From assembly GCA_964355855.1 (NCBI GenBank), contig CAYHFD010000001.1, forward strand, positions 9,921-73,920: a stretch of DNA of 64,000 bases. The letters are read 5' to 3'. The notes beneath the pieces are model-generated. The model did no database searches. It had not been told where the DNA came from and saw only the letters and a program-made list of their open reading frames with translations. This stretch comes from an uncultured Candidatus Saccharibacteria bacterium (GTDB lineage Bacteria; Patescibacteriota; Minisyncoccia; Phycocordibacterales; XYD1-FULL-46-19). This document shows, one piece after another, positions 14,952-36,270 of this stretch; position 1 is the first letter of the stretch; the number at the start of each line of letters is the position of its first letter. Position numbers and translations under genes: made by a program.

Positions 14952-15927
14952 GGCTGACCTGCTCCGTAGAAAACACCTAACCCCAGACAATGGTTACATT
15001 GTGGACGAACAATCGAAGCATCATCTCACGACACTGCGACCAATATGACCGGGCTCGCAAGAACAAACCAAGATTGCTTTAATCATTGAGTTCACTGTTT
15101 CCCCTTGCCACCGCTGGCCGTAAAGAACCTTGTTGAAATGAGTGGCCATAATTTTCCGCCACTTGCCACTTGGAAGTTTGTCAGTTCGTCTGCCAATCCT
15201 CGGTGGGATAATTGTCCGAATGTTTTTCTCGCGAGCAAAGACATGTGAATGTTCGCTGTCATAACCAGCATCAGCCGTTAGGATCTTTAGGTGAACATTT
15301 TTTTCGGCTTCTTTCACTGCTTTTTCAAAATGAACAATATCAGGATATGGACCACGGGATGGCACTCCCGCTAGGACGAGATGGGTATGGCAATCAGAGA
15401 CAATACCAACCTTTGGATAGCGAGTATATGTTGTCAATTGGTACTTTTCTTCTCCTTTAGCTCTTCTTTTCACAAAATAAGTACTAATATGGTGCGATTC
15501 GAAGCCGGTGCCATCAATAGCCGAGAGTTGGATATTTTTTTGCATAATTTTTCTCTGAACCGCAAGAGCGAGAATTTCTTTAATGAGTTTGTCTAAGGTA
15601 TCTTTTTTGGTTAGCCGATAGGCGGCTTTTTGGAGGGTGGTGAAGTGTGGAATTTCGTTTAATTCGAGTATTTTCCTTAGATCGCTGGAGTCCTGCAATA
15701 TTTCTTCGATTCCGCGATAATCAGTAGTAAAAAATTCTTTCAGCACTAAGCAGGCGACTAGTTGATGTTGAGTAAACTTCTTGGGACTTTTGAGATGCCG
15801 AAATGGTGGTAATGCTCGCTTGGCGGTGGCGTAGGCAACCACCGCAATAGCGTTAGGTGATTTTGATGTTTTTATTACCCAAAGTATATCATGGGCTGTC
15901 TATGTTTTCTACGGAGCAGGGCTGACC
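14952..15927 (-). mobile_element. IS4/IS5-like insertion sequence with 17-bp terminal IRs and 8-bp target-site duplication
   Basis: CTGCTCCGTAGAAAACA at 14960-14976 and its reverse complement at 15903-15919, each flanked by direct GGCTGACC (14952-14959; 15920-15927). Confidence 0.75.
15021..15842 (-). CDS. DDE transposase (IS4/IS5-like)
   Basis: IDGTGFESHH ... ILTADAGYDSEHSHVFAREKNIRTIIPP catalytic DDE context. Confidence 0.85.
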   Translation of the reverse strand: MVAYATAKRALPPFRHLKSPKKFTQHQLVACLVLKEFFTTDYRGIEEILQDSSDLRKILELNEIPHFTTLQKAAYRLTKKDTLDKLIKEILALAVQRKIMQKNIQLSAIDGTGFESHHISTYFVKRRAKGEEKYQLTTYTRYPKVGIVSDCHTHLVLAGVPSRGPYPDIVHFEKAVKEAEKNVHLKILTADAGYDSEHSHVFAREKNIRTIIPPRIGRRTDKLPSGKWRKIMATHFNKVLYGQRWQGETVNSMIKAILVCSCEPGHIGRSVVR

Positions 15928-15987
15928 CAATTTCTGAAATAGTGGCTGATTTCATTATCTACCACATTATCCATTTCTAGAAGCTGA

Positions 15988-16191
15988 TTACATCCCTGAC
16001 CACTCCTTTTCACACTGTGCGCAACGATTATTGCCAGTATGTTCAAAAATATCAGTAAACTTGTTTGGCTGATATATTTTTTCATCTTCATTCCAGAAAA
16101 ATTCGTCATCTATAATTGTTTCTACTAACTTGCGTTCACAACCACAAAATTGACAAGAATGTTTTGGAAAAATTATGATTTCTTCATCCAT
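15988..16191 (-). CDS. small zinc-ribbon protein (CxxC...CxxC)
   Basis: CQFCGCERK ... CAQCEKEW. Confidence 0.4.
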   Translation of the reverse strand: MDEEIIIFPKHSCQFCGCERKLVETIIDDEFFWNEDEKIYQPNKFTDIFEHTGNNRCAQCEKEWSGM

Positions 16192-16226
16192 ATTCTGATC
16201 ATTGATCGAATCTAGAAGTAAGTCAA

Positions 16227-16994
16227 CTACTTTAATCGGTAGACGCCATCACCAGCGAATTCAAGATAGCCCTTATCTCTCAAGAATTGTAATTGCTGTC
16301 TGATTTTCGGTTTTATATTTTTGTTTTCAGGATGAATGACGGACAAATCTTGCTCAAAGACATACATGTCTTGCAGGGTAAACTCTTTTTTGTTAAGAAA
16401 ATCTATACAATTCATGATATCCAAAATCCAACCTTTTACATCAGCTTTTTTAACTTGTTTGAGAAATACTGTTTTCTGCCATTTTTCCAATACATCTTTT
16501 TTATATAGTTCTTTCCCGTTCTCAATATAAAAAATTTGTCCTGCTTTTGGTATTTTAGAAAAAAGTATGTTTGAACCGACCCAACCAGCTCGTCTAGCAC
16601 TTTCTGCGAGTGGTTTTCTTTGTTCGATAATTTCGGATACAAAAAAGTGTTTTGGTACAACAAAAAAATTATTTACATCCCACATCTCAACCATATAGCC
16701 CATGAAAAAGAAATTTGGTTTTTGAGGTGAATTAATTCTCTTTATCATCTGAGAATAAGCACCCGCAGAAACCTTTTTGCCCATCTTACCTTTTTTGGAT
16801 TTCAGTTCAAAATCTTCCGCACATTTTTTACAATAAAAATCTGCAACAGGCTTGTTGTTGTCATAATTGTAAATATCATTGCCACAGCTTGGGCAATAAA
16901 TTTCATTAAGAACCCAAGCCTCACTCAACACTCTAGCTTTTTGAGAATAACTTGTGTAATTGTTAGCTAATTTTGTGTCAAAATTTAAGTTCAT
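16227..16994 (-). CDS. DpnI-like (Dam-replacing family) methyl-directed type IIM restriction endonuclease
   Basis: Co-linear resemblance to R.DpnI as I recall it: SYSQKARVLSEAWVLNEIYCPSCGN, PVADFYCKKCAEDFELKSKKG, PNFFFMGY, KPLAESARRAGWVGSNI, C-terminal winged-helix IRQQLQFLRDKGYLEF. Confidence 0.75.
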   Translation of the reverse strand: MNLNFDTKLANNYTSYSQKARVLSEAWVLNEIYCPSCGNDIYNYDNNKPVADFYCKKCAEDFELKSKKGKMGKKVSAGAYSQMIKRINSPQKPNFFFMGYMVEMWDVNNFFVVPKHFFVSEIIEQRKPLAESARRAGWVGSNILFSKIPKAGQIFYIENGKELYKKDVLEKWQKTVFLKQVKKADVKGWILDIMNCIDFLNKKEFTLQDMYVFEQDLSVIHPENKNIKPKIRQQLQFLRDKGYLEFAGDGVYRLK

Positions 16995-16997
16995 AAA

Positions 16998-17840
16998 TTA
17001 TGCCCCCAGTTTGTCTGGTTTCTTCAAGCTCTTTTTTTCATCAGATTTTAACTTCCTCTCAATTTTTTTTATGTCTTCTTCCGCCGGTAATTTTTCAGGA
17101 GTAATTCCTCGACTCAAAAGTGTTCTTCGGACACTTCTATTGTTTGTAATATGTTCTTCGGAAATAGATTGTTCACTTCTCAAGTTTTTACTTTTTGAAT
17201 TAAAAATAGTGATCTCTGTTGCAAAATCCTTCGCTTTTAGAATTATTGTTGGTTGAAAATCAGCAAGCGCACGACCACTAGGAACACCGAGCCGATTTTT
17301 CATTTCTTGAGTTGTATACCCAAATAATGCTTTATCTCCCTTACTTCGTATGAGTGCAAAATTTTTATCACTCCCCGTTTGTTGAAAAATAACACCTGAC
17401 AACTCTTTTTCTGTCTCTGTCAATTTTTGCCGAGCGTTTAGTCTTTCAAATTCTTGTATTCGTTTCTCAATAATTTCAAATTTTCTTGTTTGCACCGCAA
17501 AGTAATTTTGAGCAAATGCAATTTCTTCTTTTCTTGGATCGCCATTTTGAGCAATTAGGTAGCAGGCATACCGAGTAAGCATGATATCTGGAACCTCCTT
17601 TTGCGCACCTTTTGGCATTTGGATCGTTTTCCCGACGTCGGCAAAATGATCATTTACACTGTGACCCGTTACCTCACAAGCAGTTTTTGCCTTTGAGATA
17701 ACAGAGATGAAATTATCCCATTTTGTATAACCCAATAACTGTTGTAAATCACGGGCAAGCCAAAATTCAACACCTTCGCTAGATCTATTGGCATAAGATT
17801 CAAAATTACTTATAAGCGATTTAATAATTTCTATTTTCAT
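16998..17840 (-). CDS. DinD-like (DNA-damage-inducible protein D family, Bro-N-like) protein
   Basis: GVEFWLARDLQQLLGY..W.NF, TRYACYLIAQNGDPRK, FAQNYFAVQTR closely parallel E. coli DinD blocks. Confidence 0.7.
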   Translation of the reverse strand: MKIEIIKSLISNFESYANRSSEGVEFWLARDLQQLLGYTKWDNFISVISKAKTACEVTGHSVNDHFADVGKTIQMPKGAQKEVPDIMLTRYACYLIAQNGDPRKEEIAFAQNYFAVQTRKFEIIEKRIQEFERLNARQKLTETEKELSGVIFQQTGSDKNFALIRSKGDKALFGYTTQEMKNRLGVPSGRALADFQPTIILKAKDFATEITIFNSKSKNLRSEQSISEEHITNNRSVRRTLLSRGITPEKLPAEEDIKKIERKLKSDEKKSLKKPDKLGA

Positions 17841-17879
17841 AAGTCTATTTTAACAATTCATAACTCAAAACACCAAGCG

Positions 17880-18113
17880 CTTTGGCAATATTGGTAATGG
17901 TCGAAAGTGTAGGTGATACATAGGTCGGACCCATGGAAATGGTGACCCTCACAGCCTGGGAAACCCCCACCCGCCATCGCAAGCTCAGGCGTTGCGGGGC
18001 AGGCACGGTTTTCCGACGAGCTTCGCTCTGCCTTCCTCCACGGGAAAACAGGTGTTTTCCCGACCCCTTTCCCCTGTAGGGTCACAGTTTTTTCACTGTG
18101 TTTTAAAAAACTG
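17880..18113 (-). ncRNA. GC-rich structured element G (homolog of 27480-27702), immediately 3' of tRNA-Glu
   Basis: GC-rich in AT-rich genome; shared blocks CCTGGGAAACCC, GGTTTTCC, CTCCACGGGA.A.CAGGTGTT.TCC with element R; 20-bp perfect inverted repeat 18074-18124 includes the tRNA 3' end. Confidence 0.4.
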
Positions 18114-18185
18114 TGACCCTACAGAGAATCGAACTCTGATTACCGCCTTGAAAAGGCGATGTCCTAACCGTTAGACGATAGGGCC
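18114..18185 (-). tRNA. tRNA-Glu (anticodon TTC)
   Basis: GGCCCTATCGTCTAACGGTTAGGACATCGCCTTTTCAAGGCGGTAATCAGAGTTCGATTCTCTGTAGGGTCA folds as cloverleaf; loop TTTTCAA. Confidence 0.85.
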
Positions 18186-18542
18186 AATATTCTATATTTT
18201 AAAACTATCTATTATATTTACCAATATTTATTAGGAACATCGCCTTTACTATTTAATGTGAAAAGGCTTACCCTATTACCTTGTAAACATCAGCAATTTC
18301 TCGTCTGTCAGCGAGAACCGGATAAAAGGTAAAGTAGTTTACCTTTTATTCCAATAACCGTTTCTTGCCCGCCGAAGCCTTGGCGAAGGTGGGGACGATA
18401 GGGCCCTAAATCCACTTTTGGCGAATCGGGCGAACAGTTTCAAAGGAACTGTTTTAGCCAAAAACCGACCAAAAACGAACACGCCTAATATAACATTTTT
18501 TTGAAAAAAGCCAAGAGTTAGGGTAGGATGTAGTAGTATCTT

Positions 18543-25026: not shown

Positions 25027-25391
25027 TGCTTGGGGGCGGGTTCGAACCGCCGACCCTTCGCTCTTCCAGAGCGTTTGGACTATATCATCATCCGTTCTGC
25101 TAATAAGCAGAGTTAGGAGGCAGGCGCTTCCCCTCAACTACGCTCGGGGTAAACCCTAAGCTAATCAAGAGTACTCCCTTTCGGGATAGTCTCTACACCT
25201 TCCGAGCACCACTTTTGAATTCTAGAATATTCTAAAAACCAAAAGTGGTGCTCGGCTTGGCTCGGGATTGTCCAAAAAATTAATCTTGGGTGTCCCCCGA
25301 ATTCACCTACTTTTTCGATCCACTTTACAATAGAAAGGCCCGAAGTTTTTTAGGGTCCAGGCGAATGCTCTACCAACTGAGCTACCCAAGC
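25027..25391 (-). tRNA. tRNA-Phe (inferred anticodon GAA) interrupted by a ~282-nt group-I-like intron in the anticodon loop
   Basis: 5' exon 25359-25391: GCTTGGGTAGCTCAGTTGGTAGAGCATTCGCCT; 3' exon 25027-25076: GAAGAGCGAAGGGTCGGCGGTTCGAACCCGCCCCCAAGCA; halves form perfect acceptor (GCTTGGG/CCCAAGC), anticodon (TTCGC/GCGAA) and T stems. Confidence 0.75.
25077..25358 (-). ncRNA. group I intron (self-splicing ribozyme candidate) within tRNA-Phe
   Basis: 5' exon ends in U, intron ends in G; contains GAGACTATCCCGAAAGGGAGTACTC (P7/GAAA-tetraloop-like) and GATGATATAGTCC (P7') reminiscent of the Tetrahymena/cyanobacterial cores. Confidence 0.65.
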
Positions 25392-26624: not shown

Positions 26625-27386
26625 CTAGAGACAAAGAACTGATGAAAAATCTTGATGGCCACGACCAGGCTGACATCGTTGGGTAGTTATTGGGGTTTCT
26701 AAAACCCAAGCTTTATAGCCATAATCGTAATGCGCAGGCGCAACCTTTCTCGATGCGCTAGAGGAATCGTCTCGAAGTCCTTCGTATGTAGCTGTAACAT
26801 ATATAACACCTCCTGTATTACTTACGGAGACCAAAACTTCGGAACAGCTGTCCGGTGTGCATCCTCCCCATGTAGCTTTAACTAATGCAAGCGCCTCACT
26901 ATTTGAAAGGGTAAGTGGAACAGCGGTGATTGTGAAAGTGGAATCACTTACATCTTCAACAAAGCCTCCTCTAACTGGACGAATAAAAATCTTATATTCA
27001 CCCGTCTGGAGATTGGAAGAGATAGTCCACTTATAAAGACCAGAGTTCCGGACATTCAAAGCTACATAACCAGCTCCTTGCCCTGAACCTTCTGATCCTT
27101 CAACAAGTCCAATGTCAACATTACTTTTTATTGAGTTTGATAACCACTTAATGTCATATGTCTTGCCACCTTGATATTTCTCTCCTCCATTTGGCGAGAG
27201 AACGGTGATTGAAGGTTTAGAATTAGAAGACAGAGGAGTGATGTTGGAAGTTGGTGCCGGCTCTTGTGTGACTGGTCCAGATTTTTTAACAAAAACAAAA
27301 TATCCCACTGTACCAACGAGAATAGCAACAATTACTACTATCAAAACAATATTTACAAATCCTTTTTGATTCATATAATAATTCAT
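26625..27386 (-). CDS. secreted/surface protein with N-terminal anchor, hypothetical
   Basis: N-terminal TM, Pro/Ser/Thr linker, beta-rich body. Confidence 0.45.
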   Translation of the reverse strand: MNYYMNQKGFVNIVLIVVIVAILVGTVGYFVFVKKSGPVTQEPAPTSNITPLSSNSKPSITVLSPNGGEKYQGGKTYDIKWLSNSIKSNVDIGLVEGSEGSGQGAGYVALNVRNSGLYKWTISSNLQTGEYKIFIRPVRGGFVEDVSDSTFTITAVPLTLSNSEALALVKATWGGCTPDSCSEVLVSVSNTGGVIYVTATYEGLRDDSSSASRKVAPAHYDYGYKAWVLETPITTQRCQPGRGHQDFSSVLCL

Positions 27387-27479
27387 AAATTATTTTTCAA
27401 CTTTATAATTAAAAACTTCTTCCTCAAAATTAAATACTAGGCGAGCTTAAGTAATATAACTCCGTTTTTTATCATACCA

Positions 27480-27702
27480 TGATTTTCTGGCTGGTACCCC
27501 AGGCTCCTGGGAAACCCTGCTCCTCCGCTAAAGCTAGCGGCACGCGGGCGGTTTTCCCAATCCTTCCCCGCCTGCCATCGGCTGCGCCATCAGGCAATGG
27601 CGGGCAGGCTCCACGGGAGACCAGGTGTTCTCCTCTAAGCCGTTCGGCACGAGCTAGGCCGACCCCACTCCCTGCCGGGGGCACAACTCGTTCCCCTCGT
27701 TG
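27480..27702 (-). ncRNA. GC-rich structured element R (homolog of 17880-18113), immediately 3' of tRNA-Arg
   Basis: Shares ordered sequence blocks with element G; helix CGGGAGACC-AGGT-GTTCTCC covaries with CGGGAAAAC-AGGT-GTTTTCCCG of G; 14-bp inverted repeat GCCGGGGGCACAAC/GTTGTGCCCCCGGC includes tRNA 3' end. Confidence 0.4.
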
Positions 27703-27774
27703 TGCCCCCGGCAAGAATCGAACTTACATCAGCTCGTTAGGAGTGAGCCGTTCTATCCATTGAACTACGGGGGC
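27703..27774 (-). tRNA. tRNA-Arg (anticodon CCT)
   Basis: GCCCCCGTAGTTCAATGGATAGAACGGCTCACTCCTAACGAGCTGATGTAAGTTCGATTCTTGCCGGGGGCA; one A-C mismatch at base of anticodon stem. Confidence 0.75.
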
Positions 27775-27823
27775 AAAGTAAAAATGAGCTCACGCTCATT
27801 TTTGCATAAATTTATAACTTAGG

Positions 27824-28084
27824 CTATAAGCCAAGCTGAGATTTTATTCTATCCTCATCAAAACCAATGGTCATTTCCGCTGGCCCTGAGGGATTTGAAG
27901 GGTCGCTAATAAAAATTACCGGCACGCCCATCTGTCCGCTCTTATCAATCATTTCTTTCGCTTTGGCCCGATCGGCTACCACATCAATATCCTCGAAAGC
28001 CACATTATTGGCCTTAAAAAAATCCTTGGCCATATGACAGAAGTGGCAGGTGGAAGTGCTGTAAATGACAACTTTTTTATTCAT
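27824..28084 (-). CDS. glutaredoxin-like protein (NrdH/Grx fold)
   Basis: VVIYSTSTCHFCHMAKDFF CxxC active site, GVPVIFI. Confidence 0.75.
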   Translation of the reverse strand: MNKKVVIYSTSTCHFCHMAKDFFKANNVAFEDIDVVADRAKAKEMIDKSGQMGVPVIFISDPSNPSGPAEMTIGFDEDRIKSQLGL

Positions 28085-28410: not shown

Positions 28411-28481
28411 TGCGGAATACGAGAATCGAACTCGTGTCTATTGCTTGGGAAGCAACCATTTTGCCACTAAACTAATTCCGC
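28411..28481 (-). tRNA. tRNA-Gly (anticodon CCC)
   Basis: GCGGAATTAGTTTAGTGGCAAAATGGTTGCTTCCCAAGCAATAGACACGAGTTCGATTCTCGTATTCCGCA. Confidence 0.85.
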
Positions 28482-35813: not shown

Positions 35814-35820
35814 CGATATA

Positions 35821-36270
35821 ATTGCCTTTTGTTTATAAGCCGAATTCTGTACCGAGCACCACTTCTGACACCCACATTCTTATTAGAAAACACTAAGTAA
35901 GTGTAAATTGATTTGCTAGTGAAAGTTAGACAGTCAGTAGCAGAAGTGGTGCTCGGCGATAGCCATTTATCTGGGATGACTGTCGCCAGCCACCTCAAGC
36001 GGCACAAACCAGTGCAAAGCACTGGAGTACGACCTTGCATTCGGGTAGGTATTTTGCCGTTTCAATCTTCAGGTTTCCCTGAAGCTTCACCCCAAAGGGT
36101 GCCTTTGCCTCTCGGCTAGGGCGTCACTGCTCTCAACCCTCGGATTGCTCCGGACAGGCGTTACCTGCTACCTTGTTCCACCATCTAAAGATAGTGGGAA
36201 TGTTCGGACTTTCCTCTATCAGCCCGCCCAATCGGGCAAACTGACAGTAGCTATCCAACAAAAGGCAACC
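35821..36270 (-). ncRNA. rnpB: RNase P RNA (bacterial type A-like)
   Basis: Minus-strand: GAGGAAAGUCCGAAC (P4 5' strand), GGUAACGCCUG, GGGUGAAGC, ACAGAAUUCGGCUUAUA (P4 3' strand); P1 GGUUGCCUUUUGUU pairs with AACAAAAGGCAAUU. Confidence 0.8.

Follow-up and report, generated by a model that had tools for sequence, protein, structure and literature searches.

Integrative elements with tyrosine integrases use the 3' ends of tRNA, tmRNA and conserved protein genes as targets and restore the gene that they enter. Their direct repeat begins in the T-loop or T-stem and ends a few nucleotides past the 3' end, and the displaced copy need not be identical to the functional one. The element described here is similar in all of these respects. 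One copy, R, was found in a window of 64,000 nucleotides from an uncultured Candidatus Saccharibacteria bacterium, at 27486-27701 on the minus strand, immediately 3' of tRNA-Arg(CCT). A sister copy, E, identified by a covariance model, alignment and inspection of the flanks, lies at 17940-18124 on the same strand, 3' of tRNA-Glu(TTC). In every copy the order is A1 (the 3' end of the gene), a hairpin (a simple loop or the terminator-like T), A' (an inverted copy), the core, and A2 (a direct copy). As in integrative elements, the direct copy fits its gene, scoring 13.1 against the cognate tRNA and 5.6 +/- 1.1 against non-cognate tRNAs, and the host tRNAs are intact. Where the target is rplL (L012), the duplicated ends differ by synonymous changes and both encode GAKVTLK*, which is read as the mark of a foreign copy. 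In contrast to integrative elements of kilobases, the present element measures about 130-260 bp without a protein gene, always has the inverted target copy, and carries a conserved folded core as its cargo. No integrase was found in or near the copies, including inside the non-coding element and among 20 scanned ORFs of the window.

MITEs, REP/BIME, Correia and PATE repeats are likewise small, multicopy, intergenic, structured and protein-less, and often lie after genes. However, such repeats have fixed terminal inverted repeats, whereas the flanks here appear to be derived from each target, and the duplication varies from 9 to about 65 nt instead of being a fixed short target-site duplication. 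In subtype (b) the ends GGAATCGAAC...GTGAGATATCC pair imperfectly with tandem G.A; they derive from the T-arm and vary with the host tRNA (L022, L025, L056). The family also differs in having Patescibacteria as its only hosts and no known autonomous relative. With regard to the IS200/IS605 group, no TnpA, TnpB or IscB was found near the copies and no omega-RNA or HEARO match in Rfam, and the target duplication departs from the IS200/IS605 type of insertion, which leaves none.

The tRNA group I introns of Patescibacteria (PMC13011429) share with the element the phylum, the host gene class and modular hairpin decorations, and the A1:A' hairpin looks like P1/internal-guide pairing. In contrast, these introns interrupt the gene, while the element follows a tRNA that is already intact unspliced and has a core of only about 72 nt. 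A genuine group I intron is present in the window at 25058-25361 (Intron_gpI, 54.3 bits), and the Rfam search gave no Intron_gpI signal over the element even at E<=10. Similar to tRNA-like-capped RNAs and RNase P guides (tmRNA, mascRNA/MALAT1), the A':A2 pairing mimics acceptor and T stems and may end in N73-CCA, and the purine/pyrimidine mirror repeats beside this tRNA-like module are reminiscent of the triple helix that MALAT1 has with mascRNA. The element differs in lacking a D-loop/T-loop elbow, because its T-loop copy is mutated to GTGAGAT, and in its reversed polarity at L044. Parvoviral ITRs, which are rolling-hairpin telomeres, and DUP-TRP/INV-DUP rearrangements show the same direct, inverted, direct triplication with a hairpin at each turn. 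The ITRs are T-shaped, and A'-[P1][P3]-A2 would likewise form a T-shaped three-way fold, but the element is chromosomal, 10-100 times smaller, without a Rep protein, and not terminal.

R had been presented in a preliminary description as the second copy of a GC-rich structured element linked to tRNA genes, and several comparisons bear this out. The stretches 17940-18112 and 27486-27701 have a conserved core in common, including a 20-mer block, ACACCTGKTYTCCCGTGGAG, that occurs twice in the 64 kb against 0.01 expected. The local alignment of R with E scores 35 against 17.7 +/- 2.1 in dinucleotide shuffles (z=8.1), far beyond chance. A covariance model built from the copies of other genomes only finds two matches in the window, E with 65.9 bits and R with 22.8 bits (E-value 5e-4). 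The stretch of R has a GC content of 0.67 in a neighbourhood of about 0.33-0.43. The element does lie within the span first given, 27480-27707, although this includes the last 5-6 nt of tRNA-Arg and the element proper is narrower, as stated above. The tRNA-Arg(CCT) itself is intact at 27703-27774 on the minus strand (start 27702/3; ARAGORN; Rfam tRNA, 63.1 bits). Its 3' terminus reads ...GGGGGCA-CAA in the flank, and thus CCA is not encoded by the gene.

The extra nested hairpin reported for R was also recovered: CCTGCC (27571-27576) pairs with GGCAGG (27603-27608) around GCCATCAGGCAATGGC at 27586-27601, and it is missing from the tRNA-Glu copy at the corresponding position. R contains three modules (ins1, ins2 and V2), and E contains V1 (after GGAGGAAGG) and V2. 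The suggestion that the inserts differ in position and are therefore modular stands because two of the R modules occupy sites that are empty in E and one resembles the apical module of E; the exception is V2, which is filled in both. The module in question is ins2, which resembles the V2 apical hairpin of E and L006 though it is placed elsewhere in the core. Its likeness to V2 of E is modest, with an alignment score of 23 against 5.1 +/- 6.2 in shuffles (maximum 25).

Read 5' to 3' on the minus strand, the architecture of R starts with A1, CTTGCCGGGGGCACAAC (27699-27715), which comprises the T-stem 3' strand, the acceptor 3' strand and 4 nt of trailer and is the 5' arm of a long hairpin; it was assigned from the sequence, a 15-nt exact inverted match and the cognate-specific flank score. 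The loop of this hairpin, GAGGGGAACGA (27688-27698), takes the position at which many other copies have T. A', the inverted tRNA-Arg 3' end GTTGTGCCCCCGGCAGG (27671-27687), is complementary to A1 at 16 of 17 positions with one G.U in addition. The 5' purine segment and conserved block follow as GGGAGTGGGGTCGG (27659-27673), delimited by block alignment and three-strand haplotypes, and the purine tract within it mirrors the purine arm of P1. The outer GG of P1 stands at 27659-27660, ahead of ins1, a hairpin CCTAGC...GCTTAGAG (27633-27658). By block alignment, ins1 is placed between G2 and G3 in the 5' arm of P1, is specific to R and is missing from the 33 other copies. The P1 hairpin, GAGAAC-ACCT-GGTCTCCC (27615-27632), is backed by the covariation of P1 in the family, and GTGGAG after it (27609-27614) is invariant in all 30 aligned copies.

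Between GTGGAG and GAAGG lies ins2, CCTGCC[CGCCAT-TGCCTG-ATGGCG]CAGCCGATGGCAGG (27571-27608), recognised from sequence, block alignment and folding. The S2 purine tract, CGGGGAAGG (27562-27570), is the mirror of the P3 purine arm, as seen in the block alignment and the haplotypes. The P3 helix, GGGAAAACC / GGGTTTCCC (27509-27558), shows family covariation and bears the V2 insert at its apex (27518-27549 in the block alignment). The tail and A2 occupy 27489-27508, with CCTGGGGTA-CCA at 27492-27503; sequence, folding and inspection of the flanks identify this A2 as a copy of the tRNA-Arg 3' end that has been displaced and has partly decayed; it retains CCA and pairs with A', closing the core. 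In E, the corresponding parts are A1 (18105-18124), the loop (18094-18104), A' (18074-18093; complementary to A1 at 20 of 20 positions), the core (17955-18073) and A2 with CCA (17940-17954).

Collection scans yielded true copies among 16 of 26 genome matches and all 28 metagenome matches. They represent 34 distinct copies, from Patescibacteria MAGs or from contigs of groundwater, lake and sediment, and judged by these sequences the family is limited to Patescibacteria. Twenty-seven of the 34 lie 35-116 nt 3' of a tRNA on the same strand, with 21 anticodons represented. The sites outside tRNA genes are tmRNA (L057), rplL (L012) and the 3' end of a protein gene (L004), and one copy (L044) is oriented opposite to its tRNA. 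The core varies from 72 to 171 nt in length, and the differences are not multiples of 3, which argues that it is non-coding. The occupied tRNAs vary from genome to genome: two of the six tRNA genes in this window bear an element, counting the intron-split tRNA at 25027-25391, whereas in L006 each of four neighbouring tRNA genes has one.

The flanks are specific to each site. The inverted copy scores 16.2 against the cognate tRNA and 7.2 +/- 1.9 against non-cognate tRNAs; A' and A2 thus fit the adjoining tRNA and no other, so that in each case they either were templated by their target or are co-adapted to it. With A1 the tRNA is complete and normal; the junction is 0-6 nt beyond the discriminator base, and most copies start with CA. 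CCA is encoded by the tRNA-Val and tRNA-Ser of the window; tRNA-Glu ends in A-CAG and tRNA-Arg in A-CAA, and the A2 of both reads A-CCA. The pattern of A2 with CCA is repeated in L065, L059, L044 and L067, and in L043 the native terminator is placed after A2. In several loci CCA and/or the native trailer and terminator come after A2, which therefore looks like the displaced original end. The direct repeats are mostly 9-20 nt long and reach about 65 nt in L004. The A1:A' duplexes have energies of -11 to -52 kcal/mol and are usually stronger than A':A2. In R and E, A' is a nearly perfect complement of A1 whereas A2 has decayed, a hint of selection for pairing with the tRNA beyond selfish spread alone. 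Many other copies have a module of A-tract, hairpin and T-tract between A1 and A' that resembles a bidirectional terminator; no terminator-like site was detected on either strand within 27300-27900 or 17780-18520.

Among the 34 copies, optional hairpins are inserted at five positions of a constant core of about 72 nt. On the tRNA-sense strand this core is predicted to form a junction with the hairpins P1 and P3, which A':A2 closes. R alone folds no better than its shuffles (z -1.5 as RNA, -1.2 as DNA), and single-sequence folding of R gave nothing significant, so the structural argument rests on the comparison of copies. RNAalifold predicts P1 and P3 independently, 94.3% of cells are paired against 44-57% with the partners slid, and both-sided changes occur at 8 pairs. 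In P1, two pairs switch between A-U and G-C; in P3, the closing pair is GC, UA or CG, with A-U/G-C changes further in. A purine tract before each of P1 and P3 mirrors the purine arm of the hairpin, in a register that stays constant over 5 haplotypes in each of modules 1 and 2, which represent few independent events. The mirror relation has one recurrent type of mismatch, GAAAA over AGAAACC, and may also be explained by Watson-Crick pairing in a shifted register.

The choice of strand draws on two counts. For the mini-hairpin motif xCGNAGx', the tRNA-sense strand has 31 occurrences and the other strand 2, against 7.4 +/- 2.6 in shuffles, and the wobbles number 7 G.T against 3 A.C. They were used in place of the MFE comparison (X better in 32 of 34), which is confounded by G-richness. 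A pseudoknot between the P1 loop (ACACCUG) and a CAGGUG tail was rejected as inconsistent among copies, the loop of L050 being GGGA. An antisense tRNA-like fold was discarded, as the opposite strand of the core can form no T-arm, and splicing of the tRNA body to A2 was ruled out because A2 pairs worse than A1 with the 5' acceptor strand.

R may be an expanded member of a family of small, protein-less, structured and mobile but non-autonomous insertion elements at tRNA 3' ends, a reading to which we give about even confidence. L016 and L045 have an element at the LepA/orf130/tRNA-Gly(CCC) locus, whereas the window has none there; the LepA identity between the genomes compared is only about 60%. 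Genomes hold several copies at different tRNAs; in one of them, near-identical cores lie at tRNA-Gln and tRNA-Ile (L007 and L013), each with its own palindrome of 22-23 bp. The second of these loci also contains a 5'-truncated copy (L013:3899-3976) between 10-nt direct repeats, GCCGACAAAT. An all-vs-all BLAST of locus ORFs, up to a few kb from the 34 copies, returned spurious ORFs and housekeeping synteny and no recurrent protein family, and no transposase, integrase or reverse transcriptase gene was linked to the copies or found among the 20 scanned ORFs of the window. Presence and absence at tRNA-Gly, the truncated copy, the multiple copies and the missing linked gene together point to a non-autonomous mobile element. 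Its insertion product would be the one suggested by the architecture of the copies rather than by a closely related occupied and empty pair.

Under the mobile-element reading, the element would use tRNA 3' ends as safe landing sites and rebuild the gene that it enters, and the imported A1:T:A' hairpin could take over from the displaced native terminator. Movement may proceed via a single-stranded intermediate, either a tRNA read-through transcript or ssDNA, whose fold would be recognised by an enzyme encoded elsewhere. To our knowledge, no mechanism gives a direct-inverted-direct triplication of the target. The density of elements in L006 would suit a host function too.

Such a function is the subject of the first alternative, which we consider unlikely: a cis-acting RNA in the tRNA 3' trailer, co-transcribed and useful to the host, that controls or punctuates 3' maturation or yields a stable tRNA-capped small RNA. 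A' would pair with A1 or A2 as a three-segment switch, or form a tRNA-like acceptor/T minihelix that could be processed by RNase P, RNase Z or the CCA-adding enzyme. The co-orientation with the visible upstream gene in all copies but L044 agrees with it, as do the lack of a terminator-like site between tRNA and element in R and E, the L006 cluster, and the strong folding of tRNA-element precursors (z -4.2 and -5.6). The greater strength of A1:A' and the maintenance of A' during the decay of A2 are further points in its favour, together with the resemblance of A':A2 to stacked acceptor and T stems and the N73-CCA end in six loci. However, the patchy occupation of tRNA genes, differing between genomes, is hard to reconcile with a host role, and so are the sites behind tmRNA, rplL and another protein gene and the existence of truncated and decayed copies. 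In many copies the bidirectional terminator-like hairpin between the tRNA and A' would stop co-transcription, and the A1:A' helix of 17-24 bp would compete with the tRNA fold.

A retroposon-like element is improbable in our judgement. In this scheme, cleavage of a tRNA/element co-transcript behind the discriminator base frees an RNA of T, A', core and A2. The 3' end of this RNA, which repeats the tRNA end, would base-pair with a tRNA gene at a nick and start target-primed reverse transcription, leaving a target-site duplication of variable length. The scheme accounts for the variable direct repeats, for the one copy that has kept its 3' half between 10-nt repeats, and for the left junction at or right after the discriminator base with its usual CA, and it needs no promoter of its own. 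An RVT_1 gene occurs in a related restriction-modification island of other genomes (L071), but no reverse transcriptase stands beside any copy or within the annotated parts of the window. In addition, the parental A' and A2 would be copied, which leaves the match of the flanks to each new tRNA unexplained. There is no A-rich or other 3' tail, and natively encoded CCA accounts equally well for the CCA after A2.

A slim chance is likewise left to an ssDNA-structured element that a recombinase moves on folded single strands, as in integron attC sites, CTX-phi/Xer and IS200/IS605. The A1:T:A' palindrome would then reproduce the duplex target site in folded form, and the core would be a DNA fold of GNA mini-hairpins and purine-motif triplexes. 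GNA mini-hairpins (GCGNAGC-type) are present in ssDNA origins, and their stability is extraordinary in DNA but far lower in RNA (PMC13037366). The strand bias of these mini-hairpins agrees with the scheme. The mirror covariation is compatible with antiparallel R.R-Y triples, and this includes two of the three exception types, which have T over A-T. Single-crossover integration of a self-complementary circle gives B, loop, B', cargo, B as its product, the order seen here, and L044 has this order on the opposite strand. The direct repeat spans the T-loop to the 3' end, a segment that Williams reportedly described in 2002 as the identity block of T-loop-targeting integrases. Against it, the copies have no linked recombinase or HUH gene, a new target requires a joint change of both palindrome arms, and with DNA parameters R folds no better than its shuffles. 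The triplex itself draws on few independent substitutions, and the register-shifted Watson-Crick pairing that competes with it appears in the MFE as well.

A GC-rich repeat arisen by chance, a fragment of a protein-coding gene or a scar of excised genomic islands, to which the spurious ORFs on both strands of R and the role of tRNA-Glu as an integration hotspot (HTH fragment, DinD-DpnI cassette and IS transposase after E) might point, can be set aside as hardly credible in view of the R-E similarity far beyond chance, one core with precise boundaries in 34 contexts that random deletion scars would not share, lengths that do not differ by threes, and compensatory substitutions within the helices.

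A bolder version of the mobile-element reading, which we put forward only tentatively, would make the family a new class: a protein-less unit of about 70-170 nt, with a single-stranded fold of GNA mini-hairpins and two hairpins that are each clamped by a mirror-repeat third strand, whose insertion mechanism would template inverted and direct target copies at each new site, within a superfamily that has at least two further unrelated cores, and that possibly acts as a gate of tRNA 3' maturation. Insertion would take place at the processed tRNA 3' end by zig-zag or rolling-hairpin-like copying, and the gating could work through the alternative A1:A' and A':A2 pairings. Other, unrelated cores are carried on the same flank architecture, and a DinD-linked locus (L067) has the tRNA-Glu platform seen here with a different cargo and so is no empty site.

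The element is previously undescribed, going by searches of the literature and Rfam. In Rfam 15, with R and E as queries at the gathering score and at E<=10, the tRNA alone reaches the threshold and nothing matches over the element; five related loci at E<=0.05 gave only the tRNA. A scan of viral contigs returned 11 matches, all of them by chance in GC-rich coding DNA, and BLAST against phages and plasmids returned none. Literature searches on tRNA, structured RNA, mobile elements and MITEs of Patescibacteria/CPR brought up papers on tRNA group I introns only and no description of such an element. With up to 3 mismatches allowed, the end of tRNA-Glu or tRNA-Arg was not found again farther out, where it could bound a larger island.

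Tiny Patescibacteria genomes thus tolerate whole sets of structured elements behind tRNA genes in addition to group I introns. If the element is mobile, its targeting logic would be new among bacterial repeats, each copy having an inverted and a direct replica of its own gene end. Should it be a cis-acting RNA, it would control or punctuate tRNA 3' processing in a new way, in cells with a reduced RNA-processing machinery. The order of tRNA, inverted copy, cargo and direct copy allows a generic search, which has already revealed other cargo families. With its apparent covariation of mirror repeats (triplex-type) and its strand-specific GNA mini-hairpins, the element may offer a compact model for unusual folds in vivo.

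In the annotation of CPR MAGs, such elements give rise to spurious ORFs and to displaced 3' fragments of tRNAs. Across R, spurious ORFs run at 27472-27714 on the minus strand and at 27479-27763 on the plus strand. A truncated HTH gene, a DinD-DpnI cassette and an IS transposase lie 3' of E, and the DinD homologues are part of a mobile HTH-DinD-DpnI cassette. A search for a closely related empty site with the glutaredoxin neighbour led only to an identical contig from Hainich groundwater.

The GC-rich stretch at 27480-27707 (- strand) is real and lies directly 3' of tRNA-Arg(CCT) (27702/3-27774), but its right-hand end needs trimming, as the last 5-6 nt are tRNA. Its GC content is 0.67, while the surrounding DNA has about 0.33-0.43. 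The trimmed element, R (27486-27701), has a sister stretch, E (17940-18112), directly 3' of tRNA-Glu(TTC) (18113/4-18185). On the tRNA strand, R and E have in common the blocks GGGGTCGG, GARAACACCTGKTYTCCCGTGGAG, GGAAAACCG, and GGGTTTCCCAGG. A 20-mer block is present at two sites in the 64 kb, where 0.01 would be expected, and local alignment, by which the possibility of shared blocks below chance was checked, places the similarity well above it (z=8.1 against dinucleotide shuffles). The preliminary description of R as a second copy of a tRNA-linked element is confirmed because this similarity is far above chance and the nested hairpin is present (CCTGCC, 27571-76, and GGCAGG, 27603-08, enclosing GCCATCAGGCAATGGC); it is correct as far as it reaches.

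With the shared block as query, a scan covering one genome for each GTDB species gives 26 loci: 10 are chance matches within GC-rich coding DNA, and the 16 true copies all come from Patescibacteria (Saccharibacteria, Parcubacteria/Paceibacterota, Kaiserbacteria, and Minisyncoccia). All 28 loci from the metagenome scan are true copies, and the viral scan returns chance matches only. After duplicate removal, 34 distinct copies are obtained, two of them cut off by locus ends. The window organism comes from Hainich groundwater, and an identical contig is present in a second sample. In Rfam, tRNAs are the sole matches even at E<=10, phage and plasmid collections contain no match to the element, and literature searches yielded nothing beyond work on the group I introns of Patescibacteria tRNA genes, and no paper on the element. 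The family is real and reproducible, apparently undescribed so far, and does not fully satisfy the definition of any named family considered.

In every copy the order is the gene 3' end (A1), a loop or terminator-like hairpin (T), an inverted copy of A1 (A'), the core, and a direct, distal copy (A2). A same-strand tRNA is located 35-116 nt upstream in 27/34 copies, with 21 anticodons represented. Among the loci fetched from other genomes and metagenomes (L numbers), the upstream gene is tmRNA in L057, rplL in L012, and another protein gene in L004; in L020 the distal copy resembles a tmRNA 3' end, with a tmRNA gene 1.3 kb upstream, and in L044 the element is inverted beside tRNA-Gly. The arms of R, CTTGCCGGGGGCACAAC and GTTGTGCCCCCGGCAGG, are complementary at 16/17 positions plus one G.U, and those of E at 20/20. 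By sequence comparison the flanks are specific to the adjoining tRNA: A' scores 16.2 with the cognate tRNA vs 7.2 +/- 1.9 with non-cognate tRNAs, and A2 scores 13.1 vs 5.6 +/- 1.1. Moreover, the odd T-loop GTCCGAT of the L056 tRNA is repeated in both flanks.

CCA is encoded by the tRNA-Val and tRNA-Ser of the window; tRNA-Glu is followed by CAG and tRNA-Arg by CAA, and their distal copies read GAGGGTCA-CCA and TGGGGTA-CCA. The split between C74 and C75 recurs in L065, L059, L044, and L067, and in L043 the native terminator comes after the distal copy. Judged by the distal CCA, the recurrent split, and the terminator placement, A2 looks like the displaced original gene end, and A1, which completes the working tRNA, appears to have arrived with the insertion or to have been made at it. 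Both rplL-end copies of L012 encode GAKVTLK* with synonymous differences between them, so one copy is foreign. T hairpins behind different targets (L016, L022, and L020) have GAAAAACAC...GTGTTTTTC in common, and T therefore travels with the element.

The minimal core measures 72-73 nt, and RNAalifold (14 copies) independently predicts two hairpins, P1 (GGGAAAAC-ACCU-GUUUUCCC) and P3 (GGAAA(A)CC-GUG-GGUUUCC). The closing stem of A' and A2, continued in the common subtype as AUCGAAC/GUGAGAU with tandem G.A, was added to these two hairpins before pairs were counted. With this stem included, pairing holds in 94.3% of cells against 44-57% for slid partners, with both-sided changes at eight pairs. 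Single-sequence folding of R alone is no better than shuffles, and the case for the predicted structure rests on comparison across copies. Optional hairpins occupy five positions: inside the P1 5' arm and after GTGGAG (both in R only), after GGAGGAAGG (V1; many copies, E among them), in the P3 apex (V2; R, E, L006, and L052), and before the 3' T-loop-like box (L016, L038, L049, and L056). The CCTGCC...GGCAGG hairpin of R modestly resembles V2 of E (alignment score 23 vs 5.1 +/- 6.2) at another site, which supports the modular structure suggested earlier.

The purine tract before P1 (GGA-x-y-GGGG) covaries with both P1 arms as a mirror of the purine arm. Among 33 cores, R left out, tract AA accompanies arms GGGAAAAC and GTTTTCCC (15 copies), AG accompanies GGGGAAAC and GTTTCCCC (7 copies), GG accompanies GGGGGAAC and GTTCCCCC (1 copy), and GA or GT accompanies GGGAGAAC and GGTCTCCC (5 copies). 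These cores represent 12 haplotypes, the commonest held by the four tract groups and the others being single variants; the diverged copy L050:3711-3781 is one base short in each of the three strands. A similar pattern holds for the tract before P3 (GAAGG with GGAAAACC, GAGAG with GAGAACC, and GGAGG with GGAGGACC), with one recurrent exception, GAAAA or GAAAT with AGAAACC. Covarying mirror repeats are the signature of an intramolecular triple helix, which could be of the purine motif on the tRNA-sense strand or the pyrimidine motif on the opposite strand. Alternatively, the tract may be Watson-Crick paired with the pyrimidine arm, as in the MFE structure of R, but the register must then shift by 0-2 nt, and the AG type retains an A.C mismatch. 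The triplex is suggestive only, because few independent events lie behind it.

On the tRNA-sense strand, 23/34 copies contain the mini-hairpin motif xCGNAGx' (GCGAAGC, GCGTAGC, and similar), with 31 occurrences in all; the other strand has two, and shuffles have 7.4 +/- 2.6. Wobble pairs (7 vs 3) also favor the tRNA-sense strand. Such GCGNAGC-type hairpins, which have been described in ssDNA origins, have exceptional stability in DNA and far lower stability in RNA (PMC13037366). This hints, without proving it, that single-stranded DNA could be the form that folds.

The best-supported reading, given roughly an even chance, is a non-autonomous mobile element that would land at gene 3' ends, rebuild the gene it enters, and bring along its own hairpin, with a tRNA read-through transcript or ssDNA as the putative intermediate. 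Elements of different subtypes occupy the syntenic LepA/orf130/tRNA-Gly(CCC) locus in L016 and L045 (about 60% LepA identity); in the window this locus is empty, and its tRNA-Gly(CCC) (28411-28481, - strand) has neither element nor encoded CCA. R and E, from a single genome, are of different subtypes as well. One Saccharibacteria genome has near-identical cores behind tRNA-Gln and tRNA-Ile (L007 and L013), each with its own 22-23 bp palindrome, and in L013 a 5'-truncated copy with 10-nt direct repeats on either side adjoins a full copy. No recurrent protein family is found near the copies, and no integrase or reverse transcriptase among the annotated window ORFs. The main rival, which is rather unlikely, takes the element as a cis-acting RNA in the tRNA trailer. 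Within this RNA, A' would pair by turns with the tRNA 3' strand and with A2, or the RNA would fold as a tRNA-like minihelix serving RNase P, RNase Z, or the CCA-adding enzyme. This rival explains why the element is co-oriented with the upstream gene, why old copies preserve the A1:A' pairing, and why the local density is high; the patchy distribution, the hosts other than tRNA, the terminator-like hairpins in between, and the existence of truncated copies sit badly with it. Two variants of the mobile reading, one retroposon-like and one based on an ssDNA recombinase, are each partly supported but show clear gaps. Chance, coding, and scar explanations are contradicted. The element is placed among miniature gene-end-targeting insertion elements as a new variant, with a substantial chance of something more unusual.

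In the fetched loci, some tRNA genes without the R/E core still have an inverted and a direct copy of their 3' end, here flanking different conserved cargos, none of which is present in the window. The cargo family ...CGGGGTCGAGAGTACTTAGG...CCTTAGTAACTCGTGACCGA occurs in L006 (twice), L043, L056, and, diverged, L067. The order of 3' end, hairpin, inverted copy, cargo, and direct copy holds at L006:2305-3820, L043:1138-1400, L056:2473-2760, and L067:1715-2130 (for example, ...CGGGGTCGAGAGTACTTAGG...GTAACTCGTGACCGA). L006 also has a second cargo module, GAGACGCGAAACCTGTACCGTYCCCGTAGGGAAAG, and four of four neighboring tRNAs occupied; L052 has a tiny version of 40 nt. The same flank order around different cores suggests that tRNA-tail elements form a superfamily.

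In Saccharibacteria, a second GC-rich structured element follows the first (L007:5420-5545 and L013:3780-3900; ..GGAGCGAT[hairpin]CGCGAGG..GCGAGCCGAGG..), and that of L007 again begins with an anti-T-loop segment (CATGGACTCGAA). The L050:3607-4040 tandem comprises tRNA-Arg(TCT), a diverged element (57.5 bits, P1 loop GGGA) abutting the tRNA-Val 5' end, tRNA-Val(TAC), and a canonical element.

In the window, directly after the displaced tRNA-Glu end of E, 15021-17925 (- strand) holds a 5'-truncated HTH (Xre) gene, DinD/Bro-N, DpnI, and an IS4/5-type DDE transposase. In the three other Patescibacteria contigs examined, the HTH-DinD-DpnI-methylase cassette shows 92-98% identity (DinD protein) and is therefore a mobile restriction-modification island; the tRNA-Glu gene is a hotspot for insertion. 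Twelve nucleotides of the tRNA-Glu 5' end (GGCCCTATCGTC) are repeated exactly at 18394-18405 (- strand), 209 nt upstream of the gene, in a GC-richer stretch (18330-18480) with folding z -4.4 on the + strand vs -2.2 on the - strand. Strong sigma-70-like matches at 27352-27409 (+ strand), TTTACA-16-TATAAT (11/12) and TTCATA-16-TATAAT (10/12), are putative promoters aimed into R on the strand opposite the tRNA, and overlap a divergent Kre9-like gene start in AT-rich DNA. A tRNA gene at 25027-25391 (- strand; GCTTGGGTAGCTCAG...CGCCCCCAAGCA), with no ARAGORN call, is split by a group I intron (25058-25361; Rfam 54.3 bits), in agreement with the intron-containing tRNA genes recently described in Patescibacteria (PMC13011429). 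The bacterial type A RNase P RNA at 35820-36266 (- strand) scores 103.4 bits in Rfam, just over the threshold of 100 bits, as would be expected if the CPR RNase P is divergent.
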